The notes below the pieces were generated by a model. It made no database searches. It saw only the letters and a program-made list of their open reading frames with translations, and was not told the origin of the DNA. Shown piece after piece: positions 978 to 59,100 of a stretch of DNA of 64,000 nt; the stretch's first letter is position 1; every line of letters begins with the position of its first letter. The DNA is from Minutocellus sp. GHC0000111 (taxonomy: Eukaryota): NCBI GenBank assembly GCA_977018835.1, contig OZ361257.1:4774001-4838000 (forward strand), given 5' to 3'. Made by a program: the position numbers and the translations under genes.

Positions 978-989
978 CGTCCCTCCCGC

Positions 990-4484: not shown

Positions 4485-4543
4485 CCCCCTCGCAGATCAA
4501 TGACTAGTGCCATTGAATCTACATGTAGAGTCCTAATTGGAAT

Positions 4544-7390: not shown

Positions 7391-7462
7391 TTTTCATCTA
7401 CGTAGGTCCTACTAACCTCTACTAGCTATATCTATCTAGCTTAGCTTTAGGACCTCTTAGCA
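7388..7462 (+). mobile_element. Inverted partial LTR (75 bp, R/U5 end)
   Basis: Reverse complement of 4289-4363, followed by CCCTG (the inverted TSD junction). Confidence 0.9.
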
Positions 7463-8365: not shown

Positions 8366-8484
8366 GTTCTCACTCGTCACGCAAGAAAAACCGACACATC
8401 TTCAATCGGCCAAAACGACCGTTTCTTTCGACAATATTGGAACGACGATCCAATCTTTTCCCCGGAAGTCCTGACCAGATCGAC
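8365..8484 (+). mobile_element. Inverted 120-bp fragment of the element 5' UTR
   Basis: Reverse complement of 2372-2491, including the copy A deletion junction. Confidence 0.9.
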
Positions 8485-38400: not shown

Positions 38401-39971
38401 GCAGTGCAATCACAGGACACTGCTCAACACATGCATTCCTTGCTGCTCTCACATGGCAATGAATGGAACATAAGCTTTGGTAGAGATCAGGGTGCTCCTA
38501 TGGTCAAATGTGAGTTGCCCCAGTTAGGAGCGCCCTAGTTGTCCCAACGCTGCTGCTGGCGATGCCCACGCCACCCACATAGATGAGTGCTTTGGCTGCA
38601 GTGCAATCACTGGACACTGCTCACCACATGCATTTCTTGCGAGGAGCGCCCTGGCTTTCCTAACGCTGCTGGCGACCCCACACCACCCACAAAGATGCGT
38701 GCTTTGGCTGCAGTGCAATCACTGGACACTGCTCACCACATGCATTTCTTGCTGCTCTCACATTGTAATGAATGGAACATAAGCTTTGGTAGAGATCAGG
38801 GTGCTCCTATGGTCAAATGTGAGTTGCTCCAGTTAGGAGCGCCATAGCTTTCCCAACGCTGCTGGCGACGCCCACACCACCCACAAAGATGAGTGCTTTG
38901 GCTGCAGTGCAATCACAGGACACTGCTCACCACATGCATTCCTTGCTGCTCTCACATGGCAATGAATGGAACATAAGCTTTGGTAGAGATCAGGGTGCTC
39001 CTATGGTCAAATGTGAGTTGCTCCAGTTAGGAGCGCCCCCTAGCTTTCCCAACGCTGCTGGCGACACCCACACCACCCACAAAGATGCGTGCTTTGGCTG
39101 CAGTGCAATCACAGGACACTGCTCACCACATGCATTCCTTGCTGCTCTCACATGGCAATGAATGGAACATAAGCTTTGGTAGAGATCAGGGTGCTCCTAT
39201 GGTCAAATGTGAGTTGCTCCAGTTAGGAGCGCCCCCTAGCTTTCCCAACGCTGCTGGCGACACCCACACCACCCACAAAGATGCGTGCTTTGGCTGCAGT
39301 GCAATCACAGGACACTGCTCACCACATGCATTTCTTGCTGCTCTCACATGGCAATGAATGGAACATAAGCTTTGGTAGAGATCAGGTTGCTGCTATGGTC
39401 AAATGTGAGTTGCTCCAGTAAGGAGCGCCCTAGTTGTCCCAACGCTGCTGCTGGCGATGCCCACGCCACCCACATAGATGAGTGCTTTGGCTGCAGTGCA
39501 ATCACAGGACACTGCTCACCACATGAATTTCTTGCTGCTCTCACATTGTAATGAATGGAGCATAAGCTTTGGTAGAGATCAGGGTGCTCCTATGGTCAAA
39601 CATGAGTTGCTCCAGTTAGGAGCGCCCTAGTTTTTCCAACGCTGCTGGCGACGCCCGCACCACCCACAAAGATGCGTGCTTTGGCTGCAGTGCAATCACA
39701 GGACACTGCTCACCACATGCATTTCTTGCTGCTCTCACATGGCAATGAATGGAACATAAGCTTTGGTAGAGATCAGGGTGCTCCTATTATTGATGTTAGT
39801 TGCTCCAGTTAGGAGCGCCCTGATTTTCCCAACGCTGCTGGCGACGCCCACACCACCCACAAAGATGCGTGCTTTGGCTGCAGTGCAATCACAGGACACT
39901 GCTCACCACATGCATTCCTTGCTGCTCTCACATGGCAATGAATGGAACATAAGCTTTGGTAGAGATCAGGG
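8483..39971 (+). repeat. Main Sat-A array, ~160 monomers of ~194 bp (variants up to 198 bp, some deleted units) with higher-order duplications
   Basis: Period 194 (e.g. GATGCGTGCT at 11161 and 11355); nearly every unit carries CTGCAG, ATGCAT and AAGCTT. Confidence 0.97.
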
Positions 39972-40167
39972 TGCTAAGAGGTCCTAAAGCTAAGCTAGAT
40001 AGATATAGCTAGTAGAGGTTAGTAGGACCTACGTAGATGAAAATTGGGCCATCGGAGATGTCGTTGGCCCATGGATCAATTGTCAGGAGAGGGCACTGAG
40101 TCAGTGGTCTGATCACCGTAAGTACTGTACGAATATATACGTACGTACGTATCCCACGGTGTCAACA
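39972..40167 (-). repeat. 3' LTR, copy B (196 bp)
   Basis: TGCTAAGAGG...GTCAACA on +; abuts the PPT. Confidence 0.95.
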
Positions 40168-40178
40168 CCCCCTCGCAG
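40168..40178 (-). other. Polypurine tract (sense CTGCGAGGGGG); also 4485-4495 and 50147-50157
   Basis: G-rich run immediately 5' of the 3' LTR (TGTTGAC) on the element sense strand. Confidence 0.8.
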
Positions 40179-40226
40179 ATCAATGACTAGTGCCATTGAA
40201 TCTACATGTAGAGTCCTAATTGGAAT

Positions 40227-43200
40227 CTACATGTAAGTAGACTGGTCGCATGTCGTCATGGTAGCGGGCGGGATTGTGCTTTTTAAAATAATTTGCGCTC
40301 CTTTCCGCCAGCACACCTGGAATTGTCGTTGCTCCATGCGATCTTGGACCCAGTAGAATCTCATGTCCATAGCCTTAGACCGTCTTTGCTTGACGGTTTT
40401 ATTGGCGATTCCAGATGCTGTAGAGTTGTCAACGACGACAGCAGTAGGGGGTTGCGGGTGACCCATTTCTTCTAGTGCTGCCCGGATTGGTGCTGCATCT
40501 TTCATGTTGAAAAATAGTCCTCCCAATTCGGCTTCAGCGGCTGAGGACATTGCATGCTTGATGATGTTGGCATTGACGAGGATGGCTCCATTCATTGGTG
40601 GCATGGGATCACTTGAGTCAGGCTGGCGGTGCGGGTCCTTAGGTCGGGAGCTTAGGTAGAAGTGCCCTCTGAGCTTGCTTCTTGATTTCGGGGCTGATAA
40701 GTGGGAGGCGTCGCTATGTACATGTGGGATCATGTCTGACTTGACGTGTCGAATGACTGCGTCGGGATGGGTTGCAAGGTAATCTAGAAGCTTCTTGGCA
40801 TCTTGTCGAGTGCGCTCGGTAGCTTTGGATTGTTCCGCTGAGATGCTGTTGAGCGCCGGTAAAATTGTTGAATCAATTGCTCGACCATAGCACAAGGAGC
40901 TGCCCACCACCTGTTGAATTTTGTTGATGCCTTTGGCGTCGAGTGGTGGTGAGTCGTCTTCCGGTTCTGGCAGCTGGGGTCCCGGGCCATACGTCGGATG
41001 ATTCCATCGACATGGCGCATGCTCGGGCCGTGAGGGGCGGTCGTGTTGGAACTTGTGGCGCATCTCCTTGACGTAGTTAGGCATAGATAGATCCACCCAT
41101 TTGGCCTCGTAGTTCCACTCGAGTTGAACACCACAATAAAGTCGGCCTTCCCAATCGGTAGTGATCTTATACTTGGAGTTGAGGGCCTGAATGAGATGGT
41201 CTGCATGCTCTTTCCCGACATGCTTTGCTCCAAAATCGTCAACGGTTAGGCAAAAGGTAATTGGGCGGGTTTTGTGCCTCCAAAGGCCGGCAGTTCGCTT
41301 GCATGGGAAATAGCCATGGGGTTTGAGATGCTTGACAAGTTGATCGTAGGCTAGGCGCCCTGCCTGGGGTAATCCATGCATTCCGCCATCGATTCTGACC
41401 AATACTCGACCATTCTTTACTTTGTCGTGGAGGTCGTAGGCTTCCATGACTTTGTCGGGGATGAGAGCTACTGGCGCCCACATCCATTCTGGCTCTGGCA
41501 TGGTGCTATTGAGATAGAAGTCACTGATATCAATTCCCATGAAACGAGCGTTGTCTGTAGAGATGACGCTGTTGAAAAGTAACTTTGCAGTCAACATTTC
41601 AGCGGTCGGGGTCGAGACTGTACCAGGGTAATGAATTTTGTCGCCTCCTGCAGTCCATCGAACTCGATTGGGATTTGGTTTATGGGAGCGATAGTCGGCG
41701 ACAATGCGGAGGTATGTGGCTTTTTTCCCCCGAGGCAGTTCGGACCAGTGGACGAAAGCCATTGTATTGGAGGGAATGCTAGCACTGTTTCCAACTCGGC
41801 CGTCCGTTAGCCGTCCAATTTCATCGATGTTTGCTTGAATGAATTGGTCCCTCATGTTCGTTTTGAGGAGGTCGCGGTATTCAAGCATTGCACCAGTGTC
41901 GGGATGGACGACGGCGTTAGCAAAGTGTTGGAGGTTTGGTAAAGGCGAGAAAGCTGCCATGTTGGCCACGTGGTGGGTGCTACGACGAGATGATGGCCGT
42001 GGGGGAGGGTTCCGATGTGGAATGTACCCTCGCTGACGGTATGATCGTCGTCGAGGTGGTTTGGCGGTCGATGGTTTGGACTTGCTTGTCGATTTTGCTG
42101 GAGCTGGTAATGTTGGAGTGGCATCGATCGTTGGAGACTTGCGTTTACGTTGCCGACGGGAGGTGGGGGCATTGGAACTTTGATTGGATGTTACGACGGT
42201 TGCATCGTCGCCGTTGGGCTCGTCTACTGCAACCAAAGGATTGTAGCAGTTGGAAGAAACTGACGAGCGAGGTGGCGCGTTGGATCGACGTGATCGACGG
42301 CTTTTAGTGGTGGCTGCATCATATGTGGAGGATTTTGCCACCCTCGGAGGTTGCTGGGGCTGAGGTAACGGAGCGTTGGGGTTGGAGACAAGGTGACGGC
42401 CTGCTTCAGTCTCGTTCATCTCTTCTACGTCGTCGTCCTCGTATTTGATTTTGTAGTGCTTATACTTCTTGTCAAATGCAACGACTCTACCCTTGTAATT
42501 GCGATCTCCAAACACTTTGGCGACGATGGTACCGTGGCCGAATCGTTGGGAGTCGTCATCGTTCTCCAGCACCCTCGGAGCTGCGGTTGTCTGCATCGTC
42601 TCATCAGAGGCGGAGGTGGCAGATTCTGCTGGGGTCACTCTGTTGAAAATCTCGGAGAGCTTTTCTAAAGCTTGACGATGCTCGTCTCGAAGGGGAGCAA
42701 GGGGTGCCGCTGGATGTGGATTCTGTAGAGCGTGCAGGAGTTCATGAGCTGCGACTATTGCTGCATCGGCCGACGACGTTTTGGGTACCGGAATCATTTT
42801 GGGGAGCCAGACGAGTGTGTTACCAGTGCGTTCCGCCCGAGTTTCCTCAATCCAAACCTTGTAACACCGGTAGTGTTCCATGGCTGGACCGACATAGTAC
42901 CCATCAACGCCATGCGGGGACCAAGAGCCGCGTGCCGAGGGCATCTCGTGAAAGATGACCTTGCATCCGAGGGGGCCGAGAGGCGTGCGATTGAAATCAA
43001 AGCCGCCATTGAGTTGCTCGTACGCTGATAGTCGAGGGTTGACTCGGGATGCTCTCAGGAAATTGAGGGTCATTACCGCCTGCTCCAGCAATTTATCCCA
43101 CAAGATGAGGGGAAAGTCGGGATCGGTACCACAGAGAATCGCAATGAAATGATTCTTAAAGGTTCGAATGGCTCGTTCGGCCGCATTTCGGCGGTGGGAG

Positions 43201-44354
43201 TGCGTTGGGGTCAATTGAAAATCTACATCCTTTTCTTCCATGAACTCCTTCAGCTCTCGACTCACTTCATTATCCAATCGTTGCAATTTTGGGCGAAATC
43301 CTCGCTTGGAGAGGTATTCGAAAATAGTTTGGTACGCTCGGCGCATTTCCGTTCCCGATCGGCTTTTCATTGGTTCGGCCAAGATGCTGTTGGAGTCATA
43401 GTCATAGACGACCATTATGTGCTGGTGGCCAGAAATAGACGATACCAAGAAACGGCCGGGCTGATCTGAGAAGATCTGGCCCGTTATGTCATGACAATCA
43501 GCAAAGACATAGTTGGTGCGCTGTTGGTGTTGTGCCGGGTGGAGATCCTGCTCGGTTTCGTCCACCCCAGGGAGAGATTTTGGCGTAGCCATCGACCGTT
43601 TGGGCTTGGTCGACCTGATGTTCTTGCGCTGCTGGTCTAAGTGACCTTTAATCATCGGCATCGACTGTGGCATGTGCTTACGTACAAGCTTTGATGTGAG
43701 GCCTGGCCAAGATCTATAAAATCCCGCATCGATTGCTTTGCACCAGGTAGATAGCTGAGGACTGCCAGCGCACCAATGTAAAAAGGCTACACGTTCCGGA
43801 ACCGTCTCCTGGGCAATTGCGGCGTTGGCAGCATGTTGGATGACGTTGGGGCCGGGGAGCGGCGACATGGTGGGCGAGCAATTAAGATCTACCATCCACA
43901 ATTTCGTTGAGGGGTCTCGTTTACCTTGCAAAATGACGGTGTTGTCCTTGGCGATGACTACCGAATCCTTATCGAAAGTGGCAACACATCCATCGTCACA
44001 CAGCTGCCCAATCGATAGGAGCGATGATGCCATATTGTTGAAAATATAGGCCTTGCTAGCCGATGGGGAAACCCCAGGGAGGCGAAGCGTGGCCTCGTGG
44101 GTGTTCGTCATTGTGCTGTTATCCGGAAGGGTGACGCTGATAGGAATTGCTGTCTGTTGGACGCTGAAAATAGGGCCATCGTACGATAGGTATTGGGGCT
44201 TCTGGACAAAATGTCCCGTCGTTCCAGTATCTGCTGCGAGGACGATTGGCTCTTGAGTTGGAGGTTTGCTTTTTGACGTAAGAAAAGCTAACGAAGGCGG
44301 GGAGGAGGTGGATTCAGATATGCTATCCTCTGTTTTATACTGATTAATATCCAC
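40227..44354 (-). CDS. pol: Pol polyprotein, copy B (PR-IN-Tudor-like-RT-RNase H); probably inactivated
   Basis: Protease ADTGTTGHF; integrase SDQPG / RLDNE / NAAERAIRTFKNHF; RT IDISDFYL, GLPQAG, VDDFG; RNase H HSDAS, AEAE, VDN. Frameshift near the C-terminus (~40291-40297). Confidence 0.93.
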   Translation of the reverse strand: MDINQYKTEDSISESTSSPPSLAFLTSKSKPPTQEPIVLAADTGTTGHFVQKPQYLSYDGPIFSVQQTAIPISVTLPDNSTMTNTHEATLRLPGVSPSASKAYIFNNMASSLLSIGQLCDDGCVATFDKDSVVIAKDNTVILQGKRDPSTKLWMVDLNCSPTMSPLPGPNVIQHAANAAIAQETVPERVAFLHWCAGSPQLSTWCKAIDAGFYRSWPGLTSKLVRKHMPQSMPMIKGHLDQQRKNIRSTKPKRSMATPKSLPGVDETEQDLHPAQHQQRTNYVFADCHDITGQIFSDQPGRFLVSSISGHQHIMVVYDYDSNSILAEPMKSRSGTEMRRAYQTIFEYLSKRGFRPKLQRLDNEVSRELKEFMEEKDVDFQLTPTHSHRRNAAERAIRTFKNHFIAILCGTDPDFPLILWDKLLEQAVMTLNFLRASRVNPRLSAYEQLNGGFDFNRTPLGPLGCKVIFHEMPSARGSWSPHGVDGYYVGPAMEHYRCYKVWIEETRAERTGNTLVWLPKMIPVPKTSSADAAIVAAHELLHALQNPHPAAPLAPLRDEHRQALEKLSEIFNRVTPAESATSASDETMQTTAAPRVLENDDDSQRFGHGTIVAKVFGDRNYKGRVVAFDKKYKHYKIKYEDDDVEEMNETEAGRHLVSNPNAPLPQPQQPPRVAKSSTYDAATTKSRRSRRSNAPPRSSVSSNCYNPLVAVDEPNGDDATVVTSNQSSNAPTSRRQRKRKSPTIDATPTLPAPAKSTSKSKPSTAKPPRRRSYRQRGYIPHRNPPPRPSSRRSTHHVANMAAFSPLPNLQHFANAVVHPDTGAMLEYRDLLKTNMRDQFIQANIDEIGRLTDGRVGNSASIPSNTMAFVHWSELPRGKKATYLRIVADYRSHKPNPNRVRWTAGGDKIHYPGTVSTPTAEMLTAKLLFNSVISTDNARFMGIDISDFYLNSTMPEPEWMWAPVALIPDKVMEAYDLHDKVKNGRVLVRIDGGMHGLPQAGRLAYDQLVKHLKPHGYFPCKRTAGLWRHKTRPITFCLTVDDFGAKHVGKEHADHLIQALNSKYKITTDWEGRLYCGVQLEWNYEAKWVDLSMPNYVKEMRHKFQHDRPSRPEHAPCRWNHPTYGPGPQLPEPEDDSPPLDAKGINKIQQVVGSSLCYGRAIDSTILPALNSISAEQSKATERTRQDAKKLLDYLATHPDAVIRHVKSDMIPHVHSDASHLSAPKSRSKLRGHFYLSSRPKDPHRQPDSSDPMPPMNGAILVNANIIKHAMSSAAEAELGGLFFNMKDAAPIRAALEEMGHPQPPTAVVVDNSTASGIANKTVKQRRSKAMDMRFYWVQDRMEQRQFQVCWRKGAQIILKSTIPPATMTTCDQSTYM

Positions 44355-44366
44355 CGTCCCTCCCGC

Positions 44367-45647
44367 TCAGTTACGACGCGAGCTACCACCGCAAGGATTG
44401 TACTTGGTGGCGTTATCAACGTGGTTGGGCCCTTTGCAAGTGCATTCAAAGCTGGGGTGGTTGGACGAATAGCCGCACGTGTGGCAATAATGGCCTCTGG
44501 GGAGGATCGACTGCAGTTCCCGCTTCTCCTGGTGGTTGAGGTTAGGACCTTGGCCTGGGAAGTGGCCGGCGCCGTTCTGCTGGCCACCGCCGCGGTAGCC
44601 TCCACTGCCACCAGTGTGGTTGCGTCCCTCACGCAGAACGCGGTTCTCGGCCTTGAGTGAAGCTATTTCTTGGCGAAGTTTGGCAATGGTGTCATCCTTC
44701 TCGTTGCTCTTTTTGGCGAGGTTCGCCATCATGGCTTGGTTGGTCTTGAGGGCTTCGGTGGTATCAGCCAAAAGGAGATCGGCTCGAGAAAGAAATGGAT
44801 CGTCCGAGGCCGATGAGGCCAAATTCGCGCCATGATATCCTGCCGCTTCGGTGGTGGTATTGGCCATCTTCTTATCACACCAATCGCGGAAGTCCGACTG
44901 CATGTTGGCCCACGTGCGTTCGGCCTCCGGTCTGTCGTCCCAGTCCTCGCATGCCTTCTTTGCCAATGAGAACCTGCGCACGGAGCGGTAGAACTTGGAG
45001 ACCTTTTGCTTGTTGGTGAAGGGTTCGCCGGCCGTTTCAAACGCCTTGAAGACTTTGTTGAATATGGCGATGTGGGTGTCGATGGGTCCCCCGTCGTGCT
45101 GCTTCTCGAGCTGCTTCTCTAATTCCTCCTTCTGAGTCTCGTTGAATTTCAAGTAGCGATCGGCAATGCTGTCGATGATTTGGCGGATGGTGACTGGCTG
45201 GAAACCGAGCATGTCATCTTCGAGATGATTGATGTAGACGGCGTCGATCGAGTCGAGGAGGAGATTCTTGATCGCCGTGTTGACTTGCTCGTGCAAGTTG
45301 TAGTGGCCCTTTTCGATGTGATGTCCCCGGATTGCACGATCGCGTTGGTCTAGATTGGCCACGGCGGGAATGGTGGGGCTGGGGCCAGGATTTGCCGGAG
45401 GCACATGTGGTCGGCCGTTACTTTTGGTGGTGTGTTCGGCATCGCTGACGACGAGGCCCAAATGGCCGAGGTCATGGTCATTGTGCCCTGCTGGAATGCT
45501 GGCCGCCGCTTGTTGAAGTTCCTTGAGAGCTTTGGCAACACGCTCGCGTTGGGGAGGTTGTCCTGGGTCATTCATACGTGTGATTAACTTGGTGGGGAGA
45601 ATCGGCGCTGCGCCGAGAGGTTGGCCAAAAGCTGCGTTGGGATTCAC
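44367..45647 (-). CDS. gag: Gag, copy B (426 aa; ORF opens at GTG)
   Basis: N-terminal GHLGLV motif, coiled-coil segment, Gly-rich linker and C-terminal zinc knuckle YCHTCGYSSNHPSFEC...H; lies between the 5' LTR and pol. Confidence 0.88.
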   Translation of the reverse strand: MNPNAAFGQPLGAAPILPTKLITRMNDPGQPPQRERVAKALKELQQAAASIPAGHNDHDLGHLGLVVSDAEHTTKSNGRPHVPPANPGPSPTIPAVANLDQRDRAIRGHHIEKGHYNLHEQVNTAIKNLLLDSIDAVYINHLEDDMLGFQPVTIRQIIDSIADRYLKFNETQKEELEKQLEKQHDGGPIDTHIAIFNKVFKAFETAGEPFTNKQKVSKFYRSVRRFSLAKKACEDWDDRPEAERTWANMQSDFRDWCDKKMANTTTEAAGYHGANLASSASDDPFLSRADLLLADTTEALKTNQAMMANLAKKSNEKDDTIAKLRQEIASLKAENRVLREGRNHTGGSGGYRGGGQQNGAGHFPGQGPNLNHQEKRELQSILPRGHYCHTCGYSSNHPSFECTCKGPNHVDNATKYNPCGGSSRRN

Positions 45648-45925
45648 GCTGGTGTTTCAGTCAGCGAAGACAGTCAGCACGGCGGTGTTGCTGCGAGACG
45701 TGTGATCGACAGAAGGTTCGATCCAGAGAAGTGTGATCGATTGGATGGGTCGATCTGGTCAGGACTTCCGGGGAAAAGATTGGATCGTCGTTCCAATATT
45801 GTCGAAAGAAACGGTCGTTTTGGCCGATTGAAGATGTGTCGGTTTTTCTTGCGTGACGAGTGAGAACCCAAGACAAACCGGTGAGGTGCGAACCGAAATG
45901 GGGCGAGCACAGGTGGAAAAGATGT

Positions 45926-45937
45926 ATCACGTAGGTC
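45926..45937 (-). other. Primer-binding-site position, sense GACCTACGTGAT, complementary to an LTR segment; also 55905-55916
   Basis: Directly follows the 5' LTR terminal CA; lacks TGG; inverted repeat with 45992-46004. Confidence 0.6.
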
Positions 45938-46133
45938 TGCTAAGAGGTCCTAAAGCTAAGCTAGATAGATATAGCTAGTAGAGGTTAATAGGACCTACGT
46001 AGATGAAAAATGGGCCATCGGAGATGTCGTTGGGCCATGGATCAAGGGTCAGGAGAGGGCACTGAGTCAGTGGTCTGATCACCGTACGTACCGTACGTAT
46101 GTATACGTACGTAAGTATCCCACGGTATCAACA
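45938..46133 (-). repeat. 5' LTR, copy B (196 bp)
   Basis: Direct repeat of 39972-40167 with 11 substitutions (counted by eye). Confidence 0.95.
46060..46114. promoter_or_regulatory. Putative bZIP-type sites in U3 (CACTGAGTCAGTG and clustered TACGTA)
   Basis: AP-1/GCN4-type TGAGTCA core in a 13-bp dyad, plus repeated ACGT cores in the U3 part of the LTR; function inferred only. Confidence 0.35.
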
Positions 46134-49100
46134 CAGGGTGCTCCTGTGGTCGAATATGAGTTTCTCCAGTTAGGAGCGCCCTAACTTTCCCAACGATGCT
46201 GGCGATGCCAACACCACCCCCACAAAGATGCATGCTTTCGCTGCAGTGTAATCACAGGACACTGCTCACCACATGCATTCCTTGCTGCTCTCACATGGCA
46301 ATGAATGGAACATGAGCTTTGGTAGAGATCAGGGTGCTCCTATGGTCAAACATGAAATGCTCCAGTAAGGAGCGCCCTGGCTTTCCCAACGCTGCTGGTG
46401 ACGCCCACACCCCCCCCACAAAGATGAGTGCTTTGGCTGCAGTGCAATCACAGGACACTGCTCACCACATGCATTCCTTGCTGCTCTCACATGGCAATGA
46501 ATGGAACATAAGCTTTGGTAAAGAACAGGGTGCTCCTATGGTCAAACATGAGTTGCTCCAGTTTTAGGAGCGCCCAAATTTTCCCAACGCTGCTGGCGAC
46601 GCCCACACCCCCCACAAAGATGAGTGCTTTGGCTGCAGTGCAATCACAGGACACTGCTCACCACATGCATTCCTTGCTGCTCTCACATTGCAATGAATGG
46701 AACATGAGCTTTGGTAGAGATCAGGCAGGGTGCTCCTATGGTCAAACATGAAATGCTCCAGTAAGGAGCGCCCTGGCTTTCCCAACGCTGCTGGCGACGC
46801 CCACACCACCCACAAAGATGCGTGCTTTTGCTGCAGTGCAATCACAGGACACTGCTCACCACATGCATTCCTTGCTGCTCTCACATGGCAATGAATGGAA
46901 CATAAGCTTTGGTAGAGATCAGGGTGCTCCTATTATTGATGTGAGTTGCTCCAGTTAGGAGCGCCCTAGTTTTCCCAACGCTGCTGGCGACGCCCACAAA
47001 GATGAGTGCTTTGGCTGCAGTGCAATCACAGGACACTGCTCACCACATGCATTCCTTGCTGCTCTCACATGGCAATGAAGGAACATAAGCTTTGGTAGAG
47101 ATCAGGGTGCTCCTGTGGTGACAACTGAGTTGCTCCAGTTAGGAGCGCCCTAGTTTTCCCAATGCTGCTGGTGACGCCCACACCACCCACAAAGATGCAT
47201 GCTTTGGCTGCAGTGCAATCACAGGACACTGCTCACCACATGCATTCCTTGCTGCTCTCACATGGCAATGAATGGAACATAAGCTTTGGTAGAGATCAGG
47301 GTGCTCCTATGGTCAAACATGAGTTGCTCCAGTTAGGAGAGCACTGATTTTCCCAACGCTGCTGGCTGGCGACTCCCCAACCACCCACAAAGATGCATGC
47401 TTTGGCTGCAGTGCAATCACAGGACACTGCTCACCACATGCATTCCTTGCTGCTCTCACATGGCAATGAATGGAACACAAGCTTTGGCAGAGATCAGGGC
47501 ACTCCTATGGTCAAATGTGAGTTGCTCCAGATAGTACAGCCCTAGTTTTCCCAACGCTGCTGGCGACACCCACACCACCCACAAAGATGCGTGCTTTGGC
47601 TGCAGTGCAATCACAGGACACTGCTCACCACATGCATTCCTTGCTGCTCTCACATGGCAATGAATGGAACATAAGCTTTGGTAGAGATCAGGGTGCTGCT
47701 ATGGTCAAATGTGAGTTGCTCCAGTTAGGACAGCCCTAGCTTTCCCAACGCTGCTTTTGACGCCCACACCACCCACAAAGATGCGTGCTTTGGCTGCAGT
47801 GCAATCACAGGACACTGCTCACCACATGCATTCCTTGCTGCTCTCACATGGCAATGAATGGAACATAAGCTTTGGTAGAGATCAGGGTGCTGCTATGGTC
47901 AAATATGAGTTGCTCCAGTTAGGACAGCCCTAACTTTCCCAACGCTGCTGGTGACGCCCACACCACCCACAAAGATGCGTGCTTTGGCTGCAGTGCAATC
48001 ACAGGACACTGCTCAACACATGCATTCCTTGCTGCTCTCACATGGCAATGAATGGAACATAAGCTTTGGTAGAGATCAGGGTGCTCCTATTGTCAAATGT
48101 GAGTTGATCCAGTTAGGACAGCCCTAACTTTCCCAACGCTGCTGGCGACGCCCACACCACCCACAAAGATGCGTGCTTTGGCTGCAGTGCAATCACAGGA
48201 CACTGCTCAACACATGCATTCGTTGCTGCTCTCACATGGCAATGAATGGAACATAAGCTTTGGTAGAGATCAGGGTGCTCCTATTGTCAAATGTGAGTTG
48301 ATCCAGTTAGGAGCGACCCCTAGCTTTCCCAACGCTGCTGGCGACACCCACACCAGCCACAAAGATGCGTGCTTTGGCTGCAGTGCAATCACAGGACACT
48401 GCTCAACACATGCATTCCTTGCTGCTCTCACATGGCAATGAATGGAACATAAGCTTTGGTAGAGATCAGGGTGCTCCTATGGTCAAATGTGAGTTGCCCC
48501 AGTTAGGAGCGCCCTAGTTGTCCCAACGCTGCTGCTGGCGATGCCCACGCCACCCACATAGATGAGTGCTTTGGCTGCAGTGCAATCACTGGACACTGCT
48601 CACCACATGCATTTCTTGCGAGGAGCGCCCTGGCTTTCCTAACGCTGCTGGCGACCCCACACCACCCACAAAGATGCGTGCTTTGGCTGCAGTGCAATCA
48701 CTGGACACTGCTCACCACATGCATTTCTTGCTGCTCTCACATTGTAATGAATGGAACATAAGCTTTGGTAGAGATCAGGGTGCTCCTATGGTCAAATGTG
48801 AGTTGCTCCAGTTAGGAGCGCCATAGCTTTCCCAACGCTGCTGGCGACGCCCACACCACCCACAAAGATGAGTGCTTTGGCTGCAGTGCAATCACAGGAC
48901 ACTGCTCACCACATGCATTCCTTGCTGCTCTCACATGGCAATGAATGGAACATAAGCTTTGGTAGAGATCAGGGTGCTCCTATGGTCAAATGTGAGTTGC
49001 TCCAGTTAGGAGCGCCCCCTAGCTTTCCCAACGCTGCTGGCGACACCCACACCACCCACAAAGATGCGTGCTTTGGCTGCAGTGCAATCACAGGACACTG

Positions 49101-49950
49101 CTCACCACATGCATTCCTTGCTGCTCTCACATGGCAATGAATGGAACATAAGCTTTGGTAGAGATCAGGGTGCTCCTATGGTCAAATGTGAGTTGCTCCA
49201 GTTAGGAGCGCCCCCTAGCTTTCCCAACGCTGCTGGCGACACCCACACCACCCACAAAGATGCGTGCTTTGGCTGCAGTGCAATCACAGGACACTGCTCA
49301 CCACATGCATTTCTTGCTGCTCTCACATGGCAATGAATGGAACATAAGCTTTGGTAGAGATCAGGTTGCTGCTATGGTCAAATGTGAGTTGCTCCAGTAA
49401 GGAGCGCCCTAGTTGTCCCAACGCTGCTGCTGGCGATGCCCACGCCACCCACATAGATGAGTGCTTTGGCTGCAGTGCAATCACAGGACACTGCTCACCA
49501 CATGAATTTCTTGCTGCTCTCACATTGTAATGAATGGAGCATAAGCTTTGGTAGAGATCAGGGTGCTCCTATGGTCAAACATGAGTTGCTCCAGTTAGGA
49601 GCGCCCTAGTTTTTCCAACGCTGCTGGCGACGCCCGCACCACCCACAAAGATGCGTGCTTTGGCTGCAGTGCAATCACAGGACACTGCTCACCACATGCA
49701 TTTCTTGCTGCTCTCACATGGCAATGAATGGAACATAAGCTTTGGTAGAGATCAGGGTGCTCCTATTATTGATGTTAGTTGCTCCAGTTAGGAGCGCCCT
49801 GATTTTCCCAACGCTGCTGGCGACGCCCACACCACCCACAAAGATGCGTGCTTTGGCTGCAGTGCAATCACAGGACACTGCTCACCACATGCATTCCTTG
49901 CTGCTCTCACATGGCAATGAATGGAACATAAGCTTTGGTAGAGATCAGGG
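46134..49950 (+). repeat. Sat-A spacer between element copies B and C (~20 monomers)
   Basis: Same monomer; 46822-49950 duplicates 36843-39971. Confidence 0.95.
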
Positions 49951-50146
49951 TGCTAAGAGGTCCTAAAGCTAAGCTAGATAGATATAGCTAGTAGAGGTTA
50001 GTAGGACCTACGTAGATGAAAATTGGGCCATCGGAGATGTCGTTGGCCCATGGATCAATTGTCAGGAGAGGGCACTGAGTCAGTGGTCTGATCACCGTAA
50101 GTACTGTACGAATATATACGTACGTACGTATCCCACGGTGTCAACA
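49951..50146 (-). repeat. 3' LTR, copy C
   Basis: Same as the copy B 3' LTR. Confidence 0.95.
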
Positions 50147-50205
50147 CCCCCTCGCAGATCAATGACTAGTGCCATTGAATCTACATGTAGAGTCCTAATT
50201 GGAAT

Positions 50206-53200
50206 CTACATGTAAGTAGACTGGTCGCATGTCGTCATGGTAGCGGGCGGGATTGTGCTTTTTAAAATAATTTGCGCTCCTTTCCGCCAGCACACCTGGA
50301 ATTGTCGTTGCTCCATGCGATCTTGGACCCAGTAGAATCTCATGTCCATAGCCTTAGACCGTCTTTGCTTGACGGTTTTATTGGCGATTCCAGATGCTGT
50401 AGAGTTGTCAACGACGACAGCAGTAGGGGGTTGCGGGTGACCCATTTCTTCTAGTGCTGCCCGGATTGGTGCTGCATCTTTCATGTTGAAAAATAGTCCT
50501 CCCAATTCGGCTTCAGCGGCTGAGGACATTGCATGCTTGATGATGTTGGCATTGACGAGGATGGCTCCATTCATTGGTGGCATGGGATCACTTGAGTCAG
50601 GCTGGCGGTGCGGGTCCTTAGGTCGGGAGCTTAGGTAGAAGTGCCCTCTGAGCTTGCTTCTTGATTTCGGGGCTGATAAGTGGGAGGCGTCGCTATGTAC
50701 ATGTGGGATCATGTCTGACTTGACGTGTCGAATGACTGCGTCGGGATGGGTTGCAAGGTAATCTAGAAGCTTCTTGGCATCTTGTCGAGTGCGCTCGGTA
50801 GCTTTGGATTGTTCCGCTGAGATGCTGTTGAGCGCCGGTAAAATTGTTGAATCAATTGCTCGACCATAGCACAAGGAGCTGCCCACCACCTGTTGAATTT
50901 TGTTGATGCCTTTGGCGTCGAGTGGTGGTGAGTCGTCTTCCGGTTCTGGCAGCTGGGGTCCCGGGCCATACGTCGGATGATTCCATCGACATGGCGCATG
51001 CTCGGGCCGTGAGGGGCGGTCGTGTTGGAACTTGTGGCGCATCTCCTTGACGTAGTTAGGCATAGATAGATCCACCCATTTGGCCTCGTAGTTCCACTCG
51101 AGTTGAACACCACAATAAAGTCGGCCTTCCCAATCGGTAGTGATCTTATACTTGGAGTTGAGGGCCTGAATGAGATGGTCTGCATGCTCTTTCCCGACAT
51201 GCTTTGCTCCAAAATCGTCAACGGTTAGGCAAAAGGTAATTGGGCGGGTTTTGTGCCTCCAAAGGCCGGCAGTTCGCTTGCATGGGAAATAGCCATGGGG
51301 TTTGAGATGCTTGACAAGTTGATCGTAGGCTAGGCGCCCTGCCTGGGGTAATCCATGCATTCCGCCATCGATTCTGACCAATACTCGACCATTCTTTACT
51401 TTGTCGTGGAGGTCGTAGGCTTCCATGACTTTGTCGGGGATGAGAGCTACTGGCGCCCACATCCATTCTGGCTCTGGCATGGTGCTATTGAGATAGAAGT
51501 CACTGATATCAATTCCCATGAAACGAGCGTTGTCTGTAGAGATGACGCTGTTGAAAAGTAACTTTGCAGTCAACATTTCAGCGGTCGGGGTCGAGACTGT
51601 ACCAGGGTAATGAATTTTGTCGCCTCCTGCAGTCCATCGAACTCGATTGGGATTTGGTTTATGGGAGCGATAGTCGGCGACAATGCGGAGGTATGTGGCT
51701 TTTTTCCCCCGAGGCAGTTCGGACCAGTGGACGAAAGCCATTGTATTGGAGGGAATGCTAGCACTGTTTCCAACTCGGCCGTCCGTTAGCCGTCCAATTT
51801 CATCGATGTTTGCTTGAATGAATTGGTCCCTCATGTTCGTTTTGAGGAGGTCGCGGTATTCAAGCATTGCACCAGTGTCGGGATGGACGACGGCGTTAGC
51901 AAAGTGTTGGAGGTTTGGTAAAGGCGAGAAAGCTGCCATGTTGGCCACGTGGTGGGTGCTACGACGAGATGATGGCCGTGGGGGAGGGTTCCGATGTGGA
52001 ATGTACCCTCGCTGACGGTATGATCGTCGTCGAGGTGGTTTGGCGGTCGATGGTTTGGACTTGCTTGTCGATTTTGCTGGAGCTGGTAATGTTGGAGTGG
52101 CATCGATCGTTGGAGACTTGCGTTTACGTTGCCGACGGGAGGTGGGGGCATTGGAACTTTGATTGGATGTTACGACGGTTGCATCGTCGCCGTTGGGCTC
52201 GTCTACTGCAACCAAAGGATTGTAGCAGTTGGAAGAAACTGACGAGCGAGGTGGCGCGTTGGATCGACGTGATCGACGGCTTTTAGTGGTGGCTGCATCA
52301 TATGTGGAGGATTTTGCCACCCTCGGAGGTTGCTGGGGCTGAGGTAACGGAGCGTTGGGGTTGGAGACAAGGTGACGGCCTGCTTCAGTCTCGTTCATCT
52401 CTTCTACGTCGTCGTCCTCGTATTTGATTTTGTAGTGCTTATACTTCTTGTCAAATGCAACGACTCTACCCTTGTAATTGCGATCTCCAAACACTTTGGC
52501 GACGATGGTACCGTGGCCGAATCGTTGGGAGTCGTCATCGTTCTCCAGCACCCTCGGAGCTGCGGTTGTCTGCATCGTCTCATCAGAGGCGGAGGTGGCA
52601 GATTCTGCTGGGGTCACTCTGTTGAAAATCTCGGAGAGCTTTTCTAAAGCTTGACGATGCTCGTCTCGAAGGGGAGCAAGGGGTGCCGCTGGATGTGGAT
52701 TCTGTAGAGCGTGCAGGAGTTCATGAGCTGCGACTATTGCTGCATCGGCCGACGACGTTTTGGGTACCGGAATCATTTTGGGGAGCCAGACGAGTGTGTT
52801 ACCAGTGCGTTCCGCCCGAGTTTCCTCAATCCAAACCTTGTAACACCGGTAGTGTTCCATGGCTGGACCGACATAGTACCCATCAACGCCATGCGGGGAC
52901 CAAGAGCCGCGTGCCGAGGGCATCTCGTGAAAGATGACCTTGCATCCGAGGGGGCCGAGAGGCGTGCGATTGAAATCAAAGCCGCCATTGAGTTGCTCGT
53001 ACGCTGATAGTCGAGGGTTGACTCGGGATGCTCTCAGGAAATTGAGGGTCATTACCGCCTGCTCCAGCAATTTATCCCACAAGATGAGGGGAAAGTCGGG
53101 ATCGGTACCACAGAGAATCGCAATGAAATGATTCTTAAAGGTTCGAATGGCTCGTTCGGCCGCATTTCGGCGGTGGGAGTGCGTTGGGGTCAATTGAAAA

Positions 53201-54333
53201 TCTACATCCTTTTCTTCCATGAACTCCTTCAGCTCTCGACTCACTTCATTATCCAATCGTTGCAATTTTGGGCGAAATCCTCGCTTGGAGAGGTATTCGA
53301 AAATAGTTTGGTACGCTCGGCGCATTTCCGTTCCCGATCGGCTTTTCATTGGTTCGGCCAAGATGCTGTTGGAGTCATAGTCATAGACGACCATTATGTG
53401 CTGGTGGCCAGAAATAGACGATACCAAGAAACGGCCGGGCTGATCTGAGAAGATCTGGCCCGTTATGTCATGACAATCAGCAAAGACATAGTTGGTGCGC
53501 TGTTGGTGTTGTGCCGGGTGGAGATCCTGCTCGGTTTCGTCCACCCCAGGGAGAGATTTTGGCGTAGCCATCGACCGTTTGGGCTTGGTCGACCTGATGT
53601 TCTTGCGCTGCTGGTCTAAGTGACCTTTAATCATCGGCATCGACTGTGGCATGTGCTTACGTACAAGCTTTGATGTGAGGCCTGGCCAAGATCTATAAAA
53701 TCCCGCATCGATTGCTTTGCACCAGGTAGATAGCTGAGGACTGCCAGCGCACCAATGTAAAAAGGCTACACGTTCCGGAACCGTCTCCTGGGCAATTGCG
53801 GCGTTGGCAGCATGTTGGATGACGTTGGGGCCGGGGAGCGGCGACATGGTGGGCGAGCAATTAAGATCTACCATCCACAATTTCGTTGAGGGGTCTCGTT
53901 TACCTTGCAAAATGACGGTGTTGTCCTTGGCGATGACTACCGAATCCTTATCGAAAGTGGCAACACATCCATCGTCACACAGCTGCCCAATCGATAGGAG
54001 CGATGATGCCATATTGTTGAAAATATAGGCCTTGCTAGCCGATGGGGAAACCCCAGGGAGGCGAAGCGTGGCCTCGTGGGTGTTCGTCATTGTGCTGTTA
54101 TCCGGAAGGGTGACGCTGATAGGAATTGCTGTCTGTTGGACGCTGAAAATAGGGCCATCGTACGATAGGTATTGGGGCTTCTGGACAAAATGTCCCGTCG
54201 TTCCAGTATCTGCTGCGAGGACGATTGGCTCTTGAGTTGGAGGTTTGCTTTTTGACGTAAGAAAAGCTAACGAAGGCGGGGAGGAGGTGGATTCAGATAT
54301 GCTATCCTCTGTTTTATACTGATTAATATCCAC
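50206..54333 (-). CDS. pol: Pol polyprotein, copy C; probably inactivated
   Basis: Translation matches copy B Pol, including the C-terminal frameshift. Confidence 0.93.
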   Translation of the reverse strand: MDINQYKTEDSISESTSSPPSLAFLTSKSKPPTQEPIVLAADTGTTGHFVQKPQYLSYDGPIFSVQQTAIPISVTLPDNSTMTNTHEATLRLPGVSPSASKAYIFNNMASSLLSIGQLCDDGCVATFDKDSVVIAKDNTVILQGKRDPSTKLWMVDLNCSPTMSPLPGPNVIQHAANAAIAQETVPERVAFLHWCAGSPQLSTWCKAIDAGFYRSWPGLTSKLVRKHMPQSMPMIKGHLDQQRKNIRSTKPKRSMATPKSLPGVDETEQDLHPAQHQQRTNYVFADCHDITGQIFSDQPGRFLVSSISGHQHIMVVYDYDSNSILAEPMKSRSGTEMRRAYQTIFEYLSKRGFRPKLQRLDNEVSRELKEFMEEKDVDFQLTPTHSHRRNAAERAIRTFKNHFIAILCGTDPDFPLILWDKLLEQAVMTLNFLRASRVNPRLSAYEQLNGGFDFNRTPLGPLGCKVIFHEMPSARGSWSPHGVDGYYVGPAMEHYRCYKVWIEETRAERTGNTLVWLPKMIPVPKTSSADAAIVAAHELLHALQNPHPAAPLAPLRDEHRQALEKLSEIFNRVTPAESATSASDETMQTTAAPRVLENDDDSQRFGHGTIVAKVFGDRNYKGRVVAFDKKYKHYKIKYEDDDVEEMNETEAGRHLVSNPNAPLPQPQQPPRVAKSSTYDAATTKSRRSRRSNAPPRSSVSSNCYNPLVAVDEPNGDDATVVTSNQSSNAPTSRRQRKRKSPTIDATPTLPAPAKSTSKSKPSTAKPPRRRSYRQRGYIPHRNPPPRPSSRRSTHHVANMAAFSPLPNLQHFANAVVHPDTGAMLEYRDLLKTNMRDQFIQANIDEIGRLTDGRVGNSASIPSNTMAFVHWSELPRGKKATYLRIVADYRSHKPNPNRVRWTAGGDKIHYPGTVSTPTAEMLTAKLLFNSVISTDNARFMGIDISDFYLNSTMPEPEWMWAPVALIPDKVMEAYDLHDKVKNGRVLVRIDGGMHGLPQAGRLAYDQLVKHLKPHGYFPCKRTAGLWRHKTRPITFCLTVDDFGAKHVGKEHADHLIQALNSKYKITTDWEGRLYCGVQLEWNYEAKWVDLSMPNYVKEMRHKFQHDRPSRPEHAPCRWNHPTYGPGPQLPEPEDDSPPLDAKGINKIQQVVGSSLCYGRAIDSTILPALNSISAEQSKATERTRQDAKKLLDYLATHPDAVIRHVKSDMIPHVHSDASHLSAPKSRSKLRGHFYLSSRPKDPHRQPDSSDPMPPMNGAILVNANIIKHAMSSAAEAELGGLFFNMKDAAPIRAALEEMGHPQPPTAVVVDNSTASGIANKTVKQRRSKAMDMRFYWVQDRMEQRQFQVCWRKGAQIILKSTIPPATMTTCDQSTYM

Positions 54334-54345
54334 CGTCCCTCCCGC

Positions 54346-55626
54346 TCAGTTACGACGCGAGCTACCACCGCAAGGATTGTACTTGGTGGCGTTATCAACG
54401 TGGTTGGGCCCTTTGCAAGTGCATTCAAAGCTGGGGTGGTTGGACGAATAGCCGCACGTGTGGCAATAATGGCCTCTGGGGAGGATCGACTGCAGTTCCC
54501 GCTTCTCCTGGTGGTTGAGGTTAGGACCTTGGCCTGGGAAGTGGCCGGCGCCGTTCTGCTGGCCACCGCCGCGGTAGCCTCCACTGCCACCAGTGTGGTT
54601 GCGTCCCTCACGCAGAACGCGGTTCTCGGCCTTGAGTGAAGCTATTTCTTGGCGAAGTTTGGCAATGGTGTCATCCTTCTCGTTGCTCTTTTTGGCGAGG
54701 TTCGCCATCATGGCTTGGTTGGTCTTGAGGGCTTCGGTGGTATCAGCCAAAAGGAGATCGGCTCGAGAAAGAAATGGATCGTCCGAGGCCGATGAGGCCA
54801 AATTCGCGCCATGATATCCTGCCGCTTCGGTGGTGGTATTGGCCATCTTCTTATCACACCAATCGCGGAAGTCCGACTGCATGTTGGCCCACGTGCGTTC
54901 GGCCTCCGGTCTGTCGTCCCAGTCCTCGCATGCCTTCTTTGCCAATGAGAACCTGCGCACGGAGCGGTAGAACTTGGAGACCTTTTGCTTGTTGGTGAAG
55001 GGTTCGCCGGCCGTTTCAAACGCCTTGAAGACTTTGTTGAATATGGCGATGTGGGTGTCGATGGGTCCCCCGTCGTGCTGCTTCTCGAGCTGCTTCTCTA
55101 ATTCCTCCTTCTGAGTCTCGTTGAATTTCAAGTAGCGATCGGCAATGCTGTCGATGATTTGGCGGATGGTGACTGGCTGGAAACCGAGCATGTCATCTTC
55201 GAGATGATTGATGTAGACGGCGTCGATCGAGTCGAGGAGGAGATTCTTGATCGCCGTGTTGACTTGCTCGTGCAAGTTGTAGTGGCCCTTTTCGATGTGA
55301 TGTCCCCGGATTGCACGATCGCGTTGGTCTAGATTGGCCACGGCGGGAATGGTGGGGCTGGGGCCAGGATTTGCCGGAGGCACATGTGGTCGGCCGTTAC
55401 TTTTGGTGGTGTGTTCGGCATCGCTGACGACGAGGCCCAAATGGCCGAGGTCATGGTCATTGTGCCCTGCTGGAATGCTGGCCGCCGCTTGTTGAAGTTC
55501 CTTGAGAGCTTTGGCAACACGCTCGCGTTGGGGAGGTTGTCCTGGGTCATTCATACGTGTGATTAACTTGGTGGGGAGAATCGGCGCTGCGCCGAGAGGT
55601 TGGCCAAAAGCTGCGTTGGGATTCAC
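54346..55626 (-). CDS. gag: Gag, copy C
   Basis: Translation matches copy B Gag. Confidence 0.88.
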   Translation of the reverse strand: MNPNAAFGQPLGAAPILPTKLITRMNDPGQPPQRERVAKALKELQQAAASIPAGHNDHDLGHLGLVVSDAEHTTKSNGRPHVPPANPGPSPTIPAVANLDQRDRAIRGHHIEKGHYNLHEQVNTAIKNLLLDSIDAVYINHLEDDMLGFQPVTIRQIIDSIADRYLKFNETQKEELEKQLEKQHDGGPIDTHIAIFNKVFKAFETAGEPFTNKQKVSKFYRSVRRFSLAKKACEDWDDRPEAERTWANMQSDFRDWCDKKMANTTTEAAGYHGANLASSASDDPFLSRADLLLADTTEALKTNQAMMANLAKKSNEKDDTIAKLRQEIASLKAENRVLREGRNHTGGSGGYRGGGQQNGAGHFPGQGPNLNHQEKRELQSILPRGHYCHTCGYSSNHPSFECTCKGPNHVDNATKYNPCGGSSRRN

Positions 55627-55916
55627 GCTGGTGTTTCAGTCAGCGAAGACAGTCAGCACGGCGGTGTTGCTGCGAGACGTGTGATCGACAGAAGGTTCGA
55701 TCCAGAGAAGTGTGATCGATTGGATGGGTCGATCTGGTCAGGACTTCCGGGGAAAAGATTGGATCGTCGTTCCAATATTGTCGAAAGAAACGGTCGTTTT
55801 GGCCGATTGAAGATGTGTCGGTTTTTCTTGCGTGACGAGTGAGAACCCAAGACAAACCGGTGAGGTGCGAACCGAAATGGGGCGAGCACAGGTGGAAAAG
55901 ATGTATCACGTAGGTC

Positions 55917-56112
55917 TGCTAAGAGGTCCTAAAGCTAAGCTAGATAGATATAGCTAGTAGAGGTTAATAGGACCTACGTAGATGAAAAATGGGCCATCGG
56001 AGATGTCGTTGGGCCATGGATCAACGGTCAGGAGAGGGCACTGAGTCAGTGGTCTGATCACCGTACGTACCGTACGTATGTATACGTACGTAAGTATCCC
56101 ACGGTATCAACA
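55917..56112 (-). repeat. 5' LTR, copy C
   Basis: Same as the copy B 5' LTR except CAACGG vs CAAGGG. Confidence 0.95.
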
Positions 56113-59100
56113 CAGGGTGCTCCTGTGGTCGAATATGAGTTTCTCCAGTTAGGAGCGCCCTAACTTTCCCAACGATGCTGGCGATGCCAACACCACCCCC
56201 ACAAAGATGCATGCTTTCGCTGCAGTGTAATCACAGGACACTGCTCACCACATGCATTCCTTGCTGCTCTCACATGGCAATGAATGGAACATGAGCTTTG
56301 GTAGAGATCAGGGTGCTCCTATGGTCAAACATGAAATGCTCCAGTAAGGAGCGCCCTGGCTTTCCCAACGCTGCTGGTGACGCCCACACCCCCCCCACAA
56401 AGATGAGTGCTTTGGCTGCAGTGCAATCACAGGACACTGCTCACCACATGCATTCCTTGCTGCTCTCACATGGCAATGAATGGAACATAAGCTTTGGTAA
56501 AGAACAGGGTGCTCCTATGGTCAAACATGAGTTGCTCCAGTTTTAGGAGCGCCCAAATTTTCCCAACGCTGCTGGCGACGCCCACACCCCCCACAAAGAT
56601 GAGTGCTTTGGCTGCAGTGCAATCACAGGACACTGCTCACCACATGCATTCCTTGCTGCTCTCACATTGCAATGAATGGAACATAAGCTTTGGTAGAGAT
56701 CAGGGTGCTCCTATGGACAAATGTGATTTGCTCCAGTTAGGAGCGCCCTAGTTTTCCCAACACTGCTGGCGACGCCCACACCACCCACACAGACGAGTGC
56801 TTTGGCTGCAGTGCAATCACAGGACACTGCTCACCACATGCATTCCTTGCTGCTCTCACATGGCAATGAATGGAACATGAGCTTTGGTAGAGATCAGGGC
56901 ACTCCTATGGTCAAATATGAGTTGCTCCAGTTAGGAGCGCCCTAGTTGTCCCAACGCTGCTGGCGACGCCCACACCACCCACAAAGATGAGTGCTTTGGC
57001 TGCAGTGCAATCACAGGACACTGCTCACCACATGCATTCCTTGCTGCTCTCACATTGCAATGAATGGAACATGAGCTTTGGTAGAGATCAGGCAGGGTGC
57101 TCCTATGGTCAAACATGACTTGCTCCAGTTAGGAGCGCCCTAGCTTTCCCAACGCTGCTGGCGACGCCCACACCACCCACAAAGATGAGTGCTTTGGCTG
57201 CAGTGCAATCACAGGACACTGCTCACCACATGCATTCCTTGCTGCTCTCACATGGCAATGAATGGAACATGAGCTTTGGTAGAGATCAGGGTGCTCCTAT
57301 ATTGTCAAACATGAGTTGCTCTCCAGTTAGGAGCGCCCTAGCTTTCCCAACGCTGCTGTCGACGCCCACACCACCCACACAGACACGTGCTTTCGCTGCA
57401 GTGCAATCACAACAAGCTTTGGTAGAAATCAGGGTGTCTTGTTGTCAAATATGAGTTGTTCCAGTTAGGAGCGCCCTAGTTCTCCCAACGCTGCTGGCGA
57501 CGCCCACACCACCCACAAAGATGCGTGCTTTGGCTGCAGTGCAATCACAGGACACTGCTCACCACATGCATTCCTTGCTGCTCTCACATGGCAATGAATG
57601 GAACATGAGCTTTGGTAGAGATCAGAGCACTCCTATGGTCAAATATGAGTTGCTCCAGTTAGGAGCGCCCTAGTTGTCCCAACGCTGCTGGCGACGCCCA
57701 CACCACCCACAAAGATGAGTGCTTTGGCTGCAGTGCAATCACAGGACACTGCTCACCACATGCATTCCTTGCTGCTCTCACATTGCAATGAATGGAACAT
57801 GAGCTTTGGTAGAGATCAGGCAGGGTGCTCCTATGGTCAAACATGAGTTGCTCCAGTTAGGAGCCCTGTATTTTCTTTTCAACACTGCTGGCGACGCCCA
57901 CACAACCCACAAAGATGCATGCTTTGGCTGCAGTGCAATCAAAGGACACTGCTCACCACATGCATTCCTTGCTGCTCTCACATGGCAATGAATGGAACAT
58001 GAGCTTTGGTAGAGATCAGGGTGCTCCTGTGGTCAAACATGAGTTGCTCCAGTTAGGAGCGCCCTAGTTTTCCCAACGCTGCTGGCGACGCCCACACCAC
58101 CCACAAAGATGCGTGCTTTGGCTGCAGTGCAATCACAACAATCTTTGGTAGAGATCAGGGTGTCTTGTTGTCAAATATTAGTTGTTCCAGTTAGGAGCGC
58201 CCTAGTTTTCCCAACGCTGCTGGCGACGCCCACACCACCCACAAAGATGCGTGCTTTGGCTGCAGTGCAATCACAGGACACTGCTCACCACATGCATTCC
58301 TTGCTACTCTCACATGGCAATGAATGGAACATAAGCTTTGGTAGAGATCAGGGTGCTCCTATGGACAAATGTGATTTGCTCCAGTTAAGAGCGGCGCCCT
58401 AGTTTTCCCAACACTGCTGGCGACGCCCACACCACCCACACAGACGAGTGCTTTGGCTGCAGTGTAATCGCAGGACACTGCTCACCACATGCATTCCTTG
58501 CTGCTCTCACATGGCAATGAATGGAACATGAGCTTTGGTAGAGATCAGGGTGCTCCTGTGGTCAAACACGAGTTGCTCCAGTTAGGAGCGCCCTAGTTGT
58601 CCCAACGATGCTGGCGACGCCCACACCAACCAGACAGATGCGTGCTTAGGCTGCAGTGCAATCACAACAATCTTTGGTAGAGATCAGGGTGTCTTGTGGT
58701 CAAATATTAGTTGTTCCAGTTAGGAGCGCCCTAGTTTTCCCAACGCTGCTGGCGACGCCCACACCACCCACAAAGATGCGTGCTTTGGCTGCAGTGCAAT
58801 CACAGGACACTGCTCACCACATGCATTCCTTGCTACTCTCACATGGCAATGAATGGAACATAAGCTTTGGTAGAGATCAGGGTGCTCCTATGGACAAATG
58901 TGATTTGCTCCAGTTAAGAGCGGCGCCCTAGTTTTCCCAACACTGCTGGCGACGCCCACACCACCCACACAGACGAGTGCTTTGGCTGCAGTGTAATCGC
59001 AGGACACTGCTCACCACATGCATTCCTTGCTGCTCTCACATGGCAATGAATGGAACATGAGCTTTGGTAGAGATCAGAGCACTCCTATGGTCAAATGTGA

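Follow-up and report, generated by a model that had tools for sequence, protein, structure and literature searches.

A PTM/DIR17-type Tudor domain downstream of the integrase in a CoDi-like copia element residing in satellite DNA

Insertion-site choice is known for only a few copia retrotransposons. The 64-kb window (the whole stretch of DNA analysed here) contains a 6.2-kb copia element embedded in satellite DNA, and the first-pass annotation had proposed that a 51-residue segment of its Pol protein is a captured Royal-family reader which tethers integration to methylated-histone or centromeric chromatin. Two questions follow from this: is the segment a genuine Tudor domain that serves the element, and does it bring the element into the satellite?

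The element has the gene order PR-IN-RT-RH, TG...CA LTRs, a 5-bp target-site duplication and a purine tract, as is characteristic of Ty1/copia, and is encoded on the reverse strand. The 196-bp 5' LTR lies at positions 45938-46133, and the 3' LTR of the same length, which differs from it at 11 positions and is adjoined upstream by the purine tract, at 39972-40167. The duplication CAGGG (46134-46138 and 39967-39971, forward strand) falls within a 194-bp satellite monomer. The gag ORF (44367-45656), with a Cys/His knuckle at its C-terminus, is terminated by a TGA in the pol frame; the stop-to-stop pol ORF (40227-44366; 1379 residues) encodes protease, integrase, the Tudor segment, reverse transcriptase and RNase H. 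Expression across the in-frame TGA probably involves stop read-through or an internal start. This TGA (44367-44369) and its flanking bases are unchanged at positions 1572-1574 of the relative L001, the DNA of which is 78% identical. Among the best 120 of 618 relatives, the nearest named ones in the integrase region were from Phaeodactylum (P0032 and P0034, 59%) and Fragilaria (P0108, 55%), and a fourth named row was labelled bacterial; given the two diatom names, we regard the element as a CoDi-like (diatom-type) copia.

A second full-length copy (49951-56112) with identical flanks differs by one base in 6160 and reflects a segmental duplication with a period of 9979 bp, and a 3' half copy (4289-7391), cut inside the integrase core, differs by one base in 3099; both are on the reverse strand. 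In addition, there is a 5' piece of the element (1-2491) and inverted scraps of it (7388-7462 and 8365-8484). Since every LTR-satellite junction in the window shows the same flank and the same CAGGG, and the copies differ by single bases, they represent one insertion spread by duplication of the array, as had been suspected from the outset. The array of 194-198-bp monomers extends from 8772 to 39971 and continues at 46134-49950 and 56113-59867; it duplicates and inverts blocks containing the element, and in positions 1-8484 the element pieces are rearranged, alongside inverted scraps of LTR, leader and satellite. A second satellite of 191 bp (59918-63997) has a strong GC skew (about 0.5) and is unrelated to the 194-bp satellite by BLAST. 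No telomere repeats were found in the 64-kb window.

The 51-residue peptide is the exact translation of 42390-42542 on the reverse strand and recurs unchanged, on the same strand, in the duplicated full-length copy (52369-52521) and in the truncated 3' half copy (6707-6859). It corresponds to Pol residues 609-659; the segment had been correctly delimited, but its numbering (about 605-655) was some four residues off. The whole Pol matched the Pfam family PF21743 (PTM_DIR17_Tudor) with E=7e-11 and 42.1 bits, which is 15 bits above the gathering cut-off of 27.2 bits, and the segment alone scored 49.4 bits. The match of Pol to LBR_tudor was weak, and thus of the two types to which the domain had been likened, PTM/DIR17 and LBR, it is the former that holds. 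When the segment was searched in the Atlas, the family of PF21743 came first (0.92), with a recognition value under the Atlas threshold. AlphaFold2 predicted four strands and a helix for the segment alone (mean pLDDT 77), and Tudors (PHF1, PHF20, LBR, MTF2 and RDM15) made up most of the top Foldseek and VIA rows for this model. The VIA values (Z 6-7, rmsd 2.2-3.3 over 51-59 residues) were in a Z range common to other SH3-like barrels, and Foldseek returned zero rows at E≤0.001 for the segment model. As these fold scores alone do not separate Tudor from other SH3-like barrels, the family assignment is based on the Pfam score. The single segment gave no matches against the PDB in phmmer; LBR and RDM15 were reached there with Tudor profiles only, and with a profile of 15 Tudors the best sequence match among solved structures was the LBR Tudor, the methyl-lysine binding of which is disputed. 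Judged by the Pfam score, the models and the alignment to RDM15 (PDB 7de9), the segment is a genuine PTM/DIR17-type Tudor of the Royal family with a predicted Tudor barrel.

A model of the integrase together with the Tudor (Pol 285-670; 47 sequences) reached a pLDDT of 83.5, and 83-94 in the individual Tudor blocks. Here the catalytic core (Pol ~297-453; 43008-43478, reverse strand as are all parts of Pol) is followed by the SH3-like C-terminal domain (CTD) of the integrase itself (~469-520; 42807-42962), a predicted helical hairpin (~532-577; 42636-42773) and a disordered linker that leads up to the Tudor. In Foldseek the integrase part resembled the PFV, RSV and MVV integrases (E from 7e-10 to 2e-7), and the SH3-like CTD was recognised by the strand pattern of the model and a weak Pfam match to SH3_retrovirus (465-510, E=0.033). 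The Tudor starts about 90 residues past this domain, on a disordered tether; with the SH3-like CTD forming a separate unit ahead of it in the model, the Tudor is an added second barrel and not the usual CTD of the integrase. Farther downstream, the reverse transcriptase core (Pol 911-1107; 41046-41636) matched RVT_2 with E=2.5e-5, under the Pfam cut-off. The domain therefore lies where it had been placed, past the integrase core and ahead of the reverse transcriptase, between an upstream linker modelled as disordered and a downstream linker of low complexity.

Four of the top 120 relatives, out of 618, carried the Tudor; the remaining 116 lacked it, with no Tudor score below E=23, and a profile search of 167 proteins found it in just the same four clusters. 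In a tree of all 121 rows, the Tudor-bearing ones formed one clade (support 0.999) nested within Tudor-less elements, which fits a single gain on the stem of this copia clade. When Pol-length proteins were screened with sequence words from just the Tudor, three of the five candidates carried it, all from the same clade. Among intact relatives the identity amounted to 67-80% in the Tudor, 24-38% in the upstream linker, 38-57% in the downstream linker and 73-90% in the reverse transcriptase. Between the window and L001, dN/dS came to 0.075 in the Tudor, close to the integrase value of 0.082, and to 0.58 in the upstream linker; dS was near saturation. These comparisons of sequences indicate that the Tudor is kept by strong purifying selection.

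The window copy itself has decayed and is carried along as a passenger of the satellite. Past residue 1358 (~40293) its Pol frame leaves that of all intact relatives and the RNase H end is lost, and 48 private amino-acid changes were counted in Pol at sites where three relatives agree. Two hydrophobic Tudor positions (Pol 611 and 655) are altered, but the pocket residues are intact despite this decay. TpA hypermutation was evident in the window at 40170-46133 and in the cluster members P0001 and P0121-P0134. Where, on the pyrimidine strand, the window has C and the other copies T, the next base was A at 14 of 15 sites (among the 40 of 83 sites listed), compared to a baseline of just 14% of the element's T preceding A. 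Tyrosine sites had turned into His or Cys at 13 of 54 positions in the window, at 14-80% across 15 genomic copies and at 0-1 of 56-57 in six relatives. This pattern agrees with the process described, in the accessible part of the report, in Bigelowiella (10.64898/2026.01.13.699255). Because of the hypermutation, the LTR divergence (11/196) is not usable as an age.

The predicted pocket is composed of F619, Y624, Y642, D644, D646 and E648, that is, three aromatics, a D-x-D motif and a glutamate. According to the available text on RDM15, this protein binds H3K4me1; W616, Y623 and Y641 surround the methyl group, D643 and D645 hold two protons, and E647 and Q654 contact H3R2 (PMC8184781). With the profile of 15 Tudors (E=1.6e-4), RDM15 Y623, Y641, D643, D645 and E647 aligned with Y624, Y642, D644, D646 and E648, respectively, and the structural ranges in VIA suggest that W616 corresponds to F619. 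A counterpart of Q654 was not found in the element Tudor, which has no Gln at that spacing, and E648 is present. The candidate aromatic cage noticed at first sight is thus predicted to be intact and in register with that of RDM15. Across about 300 domain matches the pocket residues were conserved to 92% (F), 92% (Y/F), 84% (Y), 96% (D), 87% (D) and 92% (E); being common to the whole family, they indicate a kept fold and pocket and not specificity. By sequence and by analogy, the RDM15-like pocket points to a mono-methyl-lysine pocket and not clearly to a heterochromatin mark. As this Tudor type goes to gene bodies in plants, as far as the accessible text tells (10.1101/2022.05.28.493846), heterochromatin reading is not favoured. 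For PTM/DIR17 itself we found no report of a ligand in the literature.

The same Tudor family was also encountered outside this clade. Among 1.84 billion representatives, a profile of the domain found 839 matches, 150 of them listed. PF21743 was found in all 79 scanned among the listed matches, and in many of these it stood in tandem or next to bromodomain, RCC1 or RdRP domains, an arrangement to be expected of host proteins. Five of the 150 resemble a CoDi-like Pol outside the Tudor: two belong to the window clade, and three are fragments (P0277, P0293 and P0301) with best matches to other elements. A further three of the 150 constitute a second copia lineage, otherwise unalignable to the first, in which the PF21743 Tudor occupies the same position between integrase and reverse transcriptase. 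The full Pol P0321 of this lineage has the order gag_pre-integrase, SH3_retrovirus, Tudor, RVT_2, and in P0318 the Tudor was the sole significant BLAST match to the window Pol (46% identity over 63 residues). The mobile-element Tudors did not form one clade in a tree of the 150 domains, in which, with about 60 columns, deep branching is unreliable.

Several other arrangements were seen in passing. Directly ahead of the Tudor, P0318 and P0321 share a conserved unannotated domain (~760-870), which we take to be PDZ-like. P0212 and P0325 are stand-alone rve integrases, presumably Polinton- or Ginger-like, with a C-terminal Tudor of the PF21743 family; a scan of viral contigs gave no match to the rve-Tudor protein. 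At L002 (2-6300), an ORF containing a Tudor-like stretch of 42% identity comes after Rep-like and PIF1-like helicase ORFs that look Helitron-like by eye. The same Tudor family occurs on a serine resolvase/recombinase (P0251) and, in P0180 and P0258, as a fusion with 5-hmdU DNA kinase helical domains, and the copia Pol P0040 has a CCCH zinc finger ahead of its integrase.

The reading that we favour, and hold to be rather probable, is that the Tudor influences where the element lands. The domain would be retained on the mature integrase once the protease cleaves Pol, and could then bind a methylated, predicted mono-methylated, histone lysine; the bound Tudor would tether the integration complex to chosen nucleosomes and so bias insertion. 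Its one-clade restriction, its conservation under selection, its RDM15-matching pocket and its occurrence in a second copia lineage are all consistent with such a role.

A function of the domain outside target choice is unlikely; it would then bind nucleic acid, or some non-histone protein carrying methyl groups, while particles assemble or enter the nucleus or when the element evades silencing. Selection shows that there is a function, not which one, and the fold neighbours at the same Z include methyl-arginine readers (SMN and TDRD3) as well as nucleic-acid-binding PWWP and KOW barrels; furthermore, the same domain sits on the Helitron-adjacent ORF and on the resolvase. Methyl-arginine Tudors have four aromatics and an Asn, however, while the pocket here, like that of RDM15, is built from three aromatics with two aspartates. 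In addition, the net charge of the Tudor is about +1, and its position agrees with that of known integrase targeting modules.

We consider it improbable that the Tudor guides the element into satellite or centromeric chromatin or into heterochromatin methylated at H3K9/H3K27, as the first-pass annotation had proposed. The window's insertion does lie in a satellite array, but it is one event, in a satellite that is only putatively centromeric, and in a family as large as this (113 cluster members) a single satellite insertion needs no targeting. Insertion joints were sought in seven different public runs, some from the same samples, with the element plus 66 bases of satellite (four runs) or the LTR plus one full monomer (four runs) as queries. 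Among the joints listed from the seven runs there was none between LTR and satellite, and satellite without the element was present in the runs among the listed matches; as contigs break in repeats and detection favours unique flanks, satellite insertions may be missed. In six of the seven runs, listed loose ends at the exact LTR ends led into non-satellite DNA, on at least 4+5 contigs in X4, 2+3 in X5, 1 in X17, 2+1 in X2, 3+3 in X3 and 3+4 in X6; several of the junction contigs represent diverged LTR variants. All three flank motifs tested were without a match in the 64-kb window, and the 15 listed cluster members lie on contigs of 12 different lengths. Depth ratios in the runs, which are not a copy number, hint at tens of copies. 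The flanks outside the satellite may nevertheless be heterochromatic, and a D-x-D pocket could equally read H3K9me1, H3K27me1 or H4K20me1; however, H3K4me1 is what the closest structure with a ligand reads, and in plants this mark is found on gene bodies according to the accessible text. Thus, targeting of satellite or centromere by the Tudor is not supported, and of the reader initially envisaged there remains a Tudor gained by one clade, under selection and with its cage intact, but not the satellite tether. The runs containing the element's words come from seven studies and are labelled as sponge metagenome, marine metagenome, metagenome and three coded organisms; by word matches, 9 of 20 holders are RNA runs. 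Since the element is of diatom type, a sponge-associated alga would be a plausible host.

Tudor and SH3 barrels do look alike and the fold scores are middling, but the notion that the domain is carried along neutrally, or that the ordinary SH3-like CTD of the integrase was misread as a Tudor, is very improbable and largely refuted by the dN/dS of 0.075 and the CTD modelled apart and upstream, together with the Pfam score over the cut-off and the absence of the domain from sister elements.

Sister families that carry or lack this small, independently folding reader on their copia integrase offer a natural comparison of insertion sites. Should the Tudor read a mono-methyl mark, transposon targeting would be widened beyond the model of the heterochromatin-seeking chromodomain, and the element would probe chromatin marks that are poorly mapped in diatom-like algae. 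More tentatively, and with doubt prevailing, one small Tudor family may have been captured repeatedly by marine-protist mobile elements as a mono-methyl-lysine tether, the captures counted being at least two deep copia lineages, the stand-alone rve integrase, a published Gypsy element and perhaps a Helitron. This would make it the Tudor counterpart of the chromovirus module, steering copia by a mark for which no transposon reader is yet known, and perhaps on chromatin associated with genes and not on silent chromatin.

Among the papers surveyed by title and abstract, none described a copia element with a Tudor; the tables of transposon-reader fusions in the supplements of a chromatin-evolution preprint may include cases, and in its accessible text such fusions are common and mostly involve PHD and chromo domains. 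The conserved-domain model cd20401 presumably describes PTM-like Tudors. It was to this model that the Tudor of Gypsy-10_Ec32 from Ectocarpus was aligned by its authors, who called it the first transposable element with a Tudor; together with a Tribonema homologue, it has the domain past the integrase of an LTR retrotransposon Pol (2025, PMC12477816). The window element shares with it the Tudor downstream of the integrase, the host there being a stramenopile; as far as the available description goes, Gypsy-10_Ec32 belongs, however, to Ty3/Gypsy and carries its Tudor at the C-terminus of Pol, whereas here the element is Ty1/copia and the Tudor internal. The CoDi-A integrases, also from diatom copia elements, have a Royal-family module at their C-terminus that is described in the accessible text as a putative chromodomain, proposed to have been captured independently (Llorens 2009, PMC2774666). 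Compared by description, that module differs from the window's, which scores as a Tudor, and its description in 2009 leaves incomplete the earlier view that copia targeting uses short peptides alone. The RDM15/PDS5C Tudor (7de9) shares the three-aromatic cage, two aspartates and the glutamate in register, but is a plant host protein with about 20-26% identity and a Q654 that has no counterpart in the element, the loop of which is two residues shorter. The window Pol gave no match to any chromodomain family in Pfam up to E=10, and this, along with the copia gene order, ruled out a chromovirus. Chromoviruses of the MAGGY type likewise have a histone-reader barrel appended to the integrase, but with Gypsy order, a chromodomain and experimentally shown targeting (to H3K9me regions in MAGGY, by the available text), which for the copia Tudor would be a predicted property. 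In the Arabidopsis ALE copia elements Tal1 and EVD, the C-terminal region of the integrase sets the choice of chromatin target (PMC11735389); the choice there depends on an R/K residue, the accessible text making no mention of a reader domain, and centromere targeting is proven. By analogy, the Tal1/EVD integrase C-terminus and the MAGGY chromodomain both lend support to a tethering of the integrase by the Tudor.
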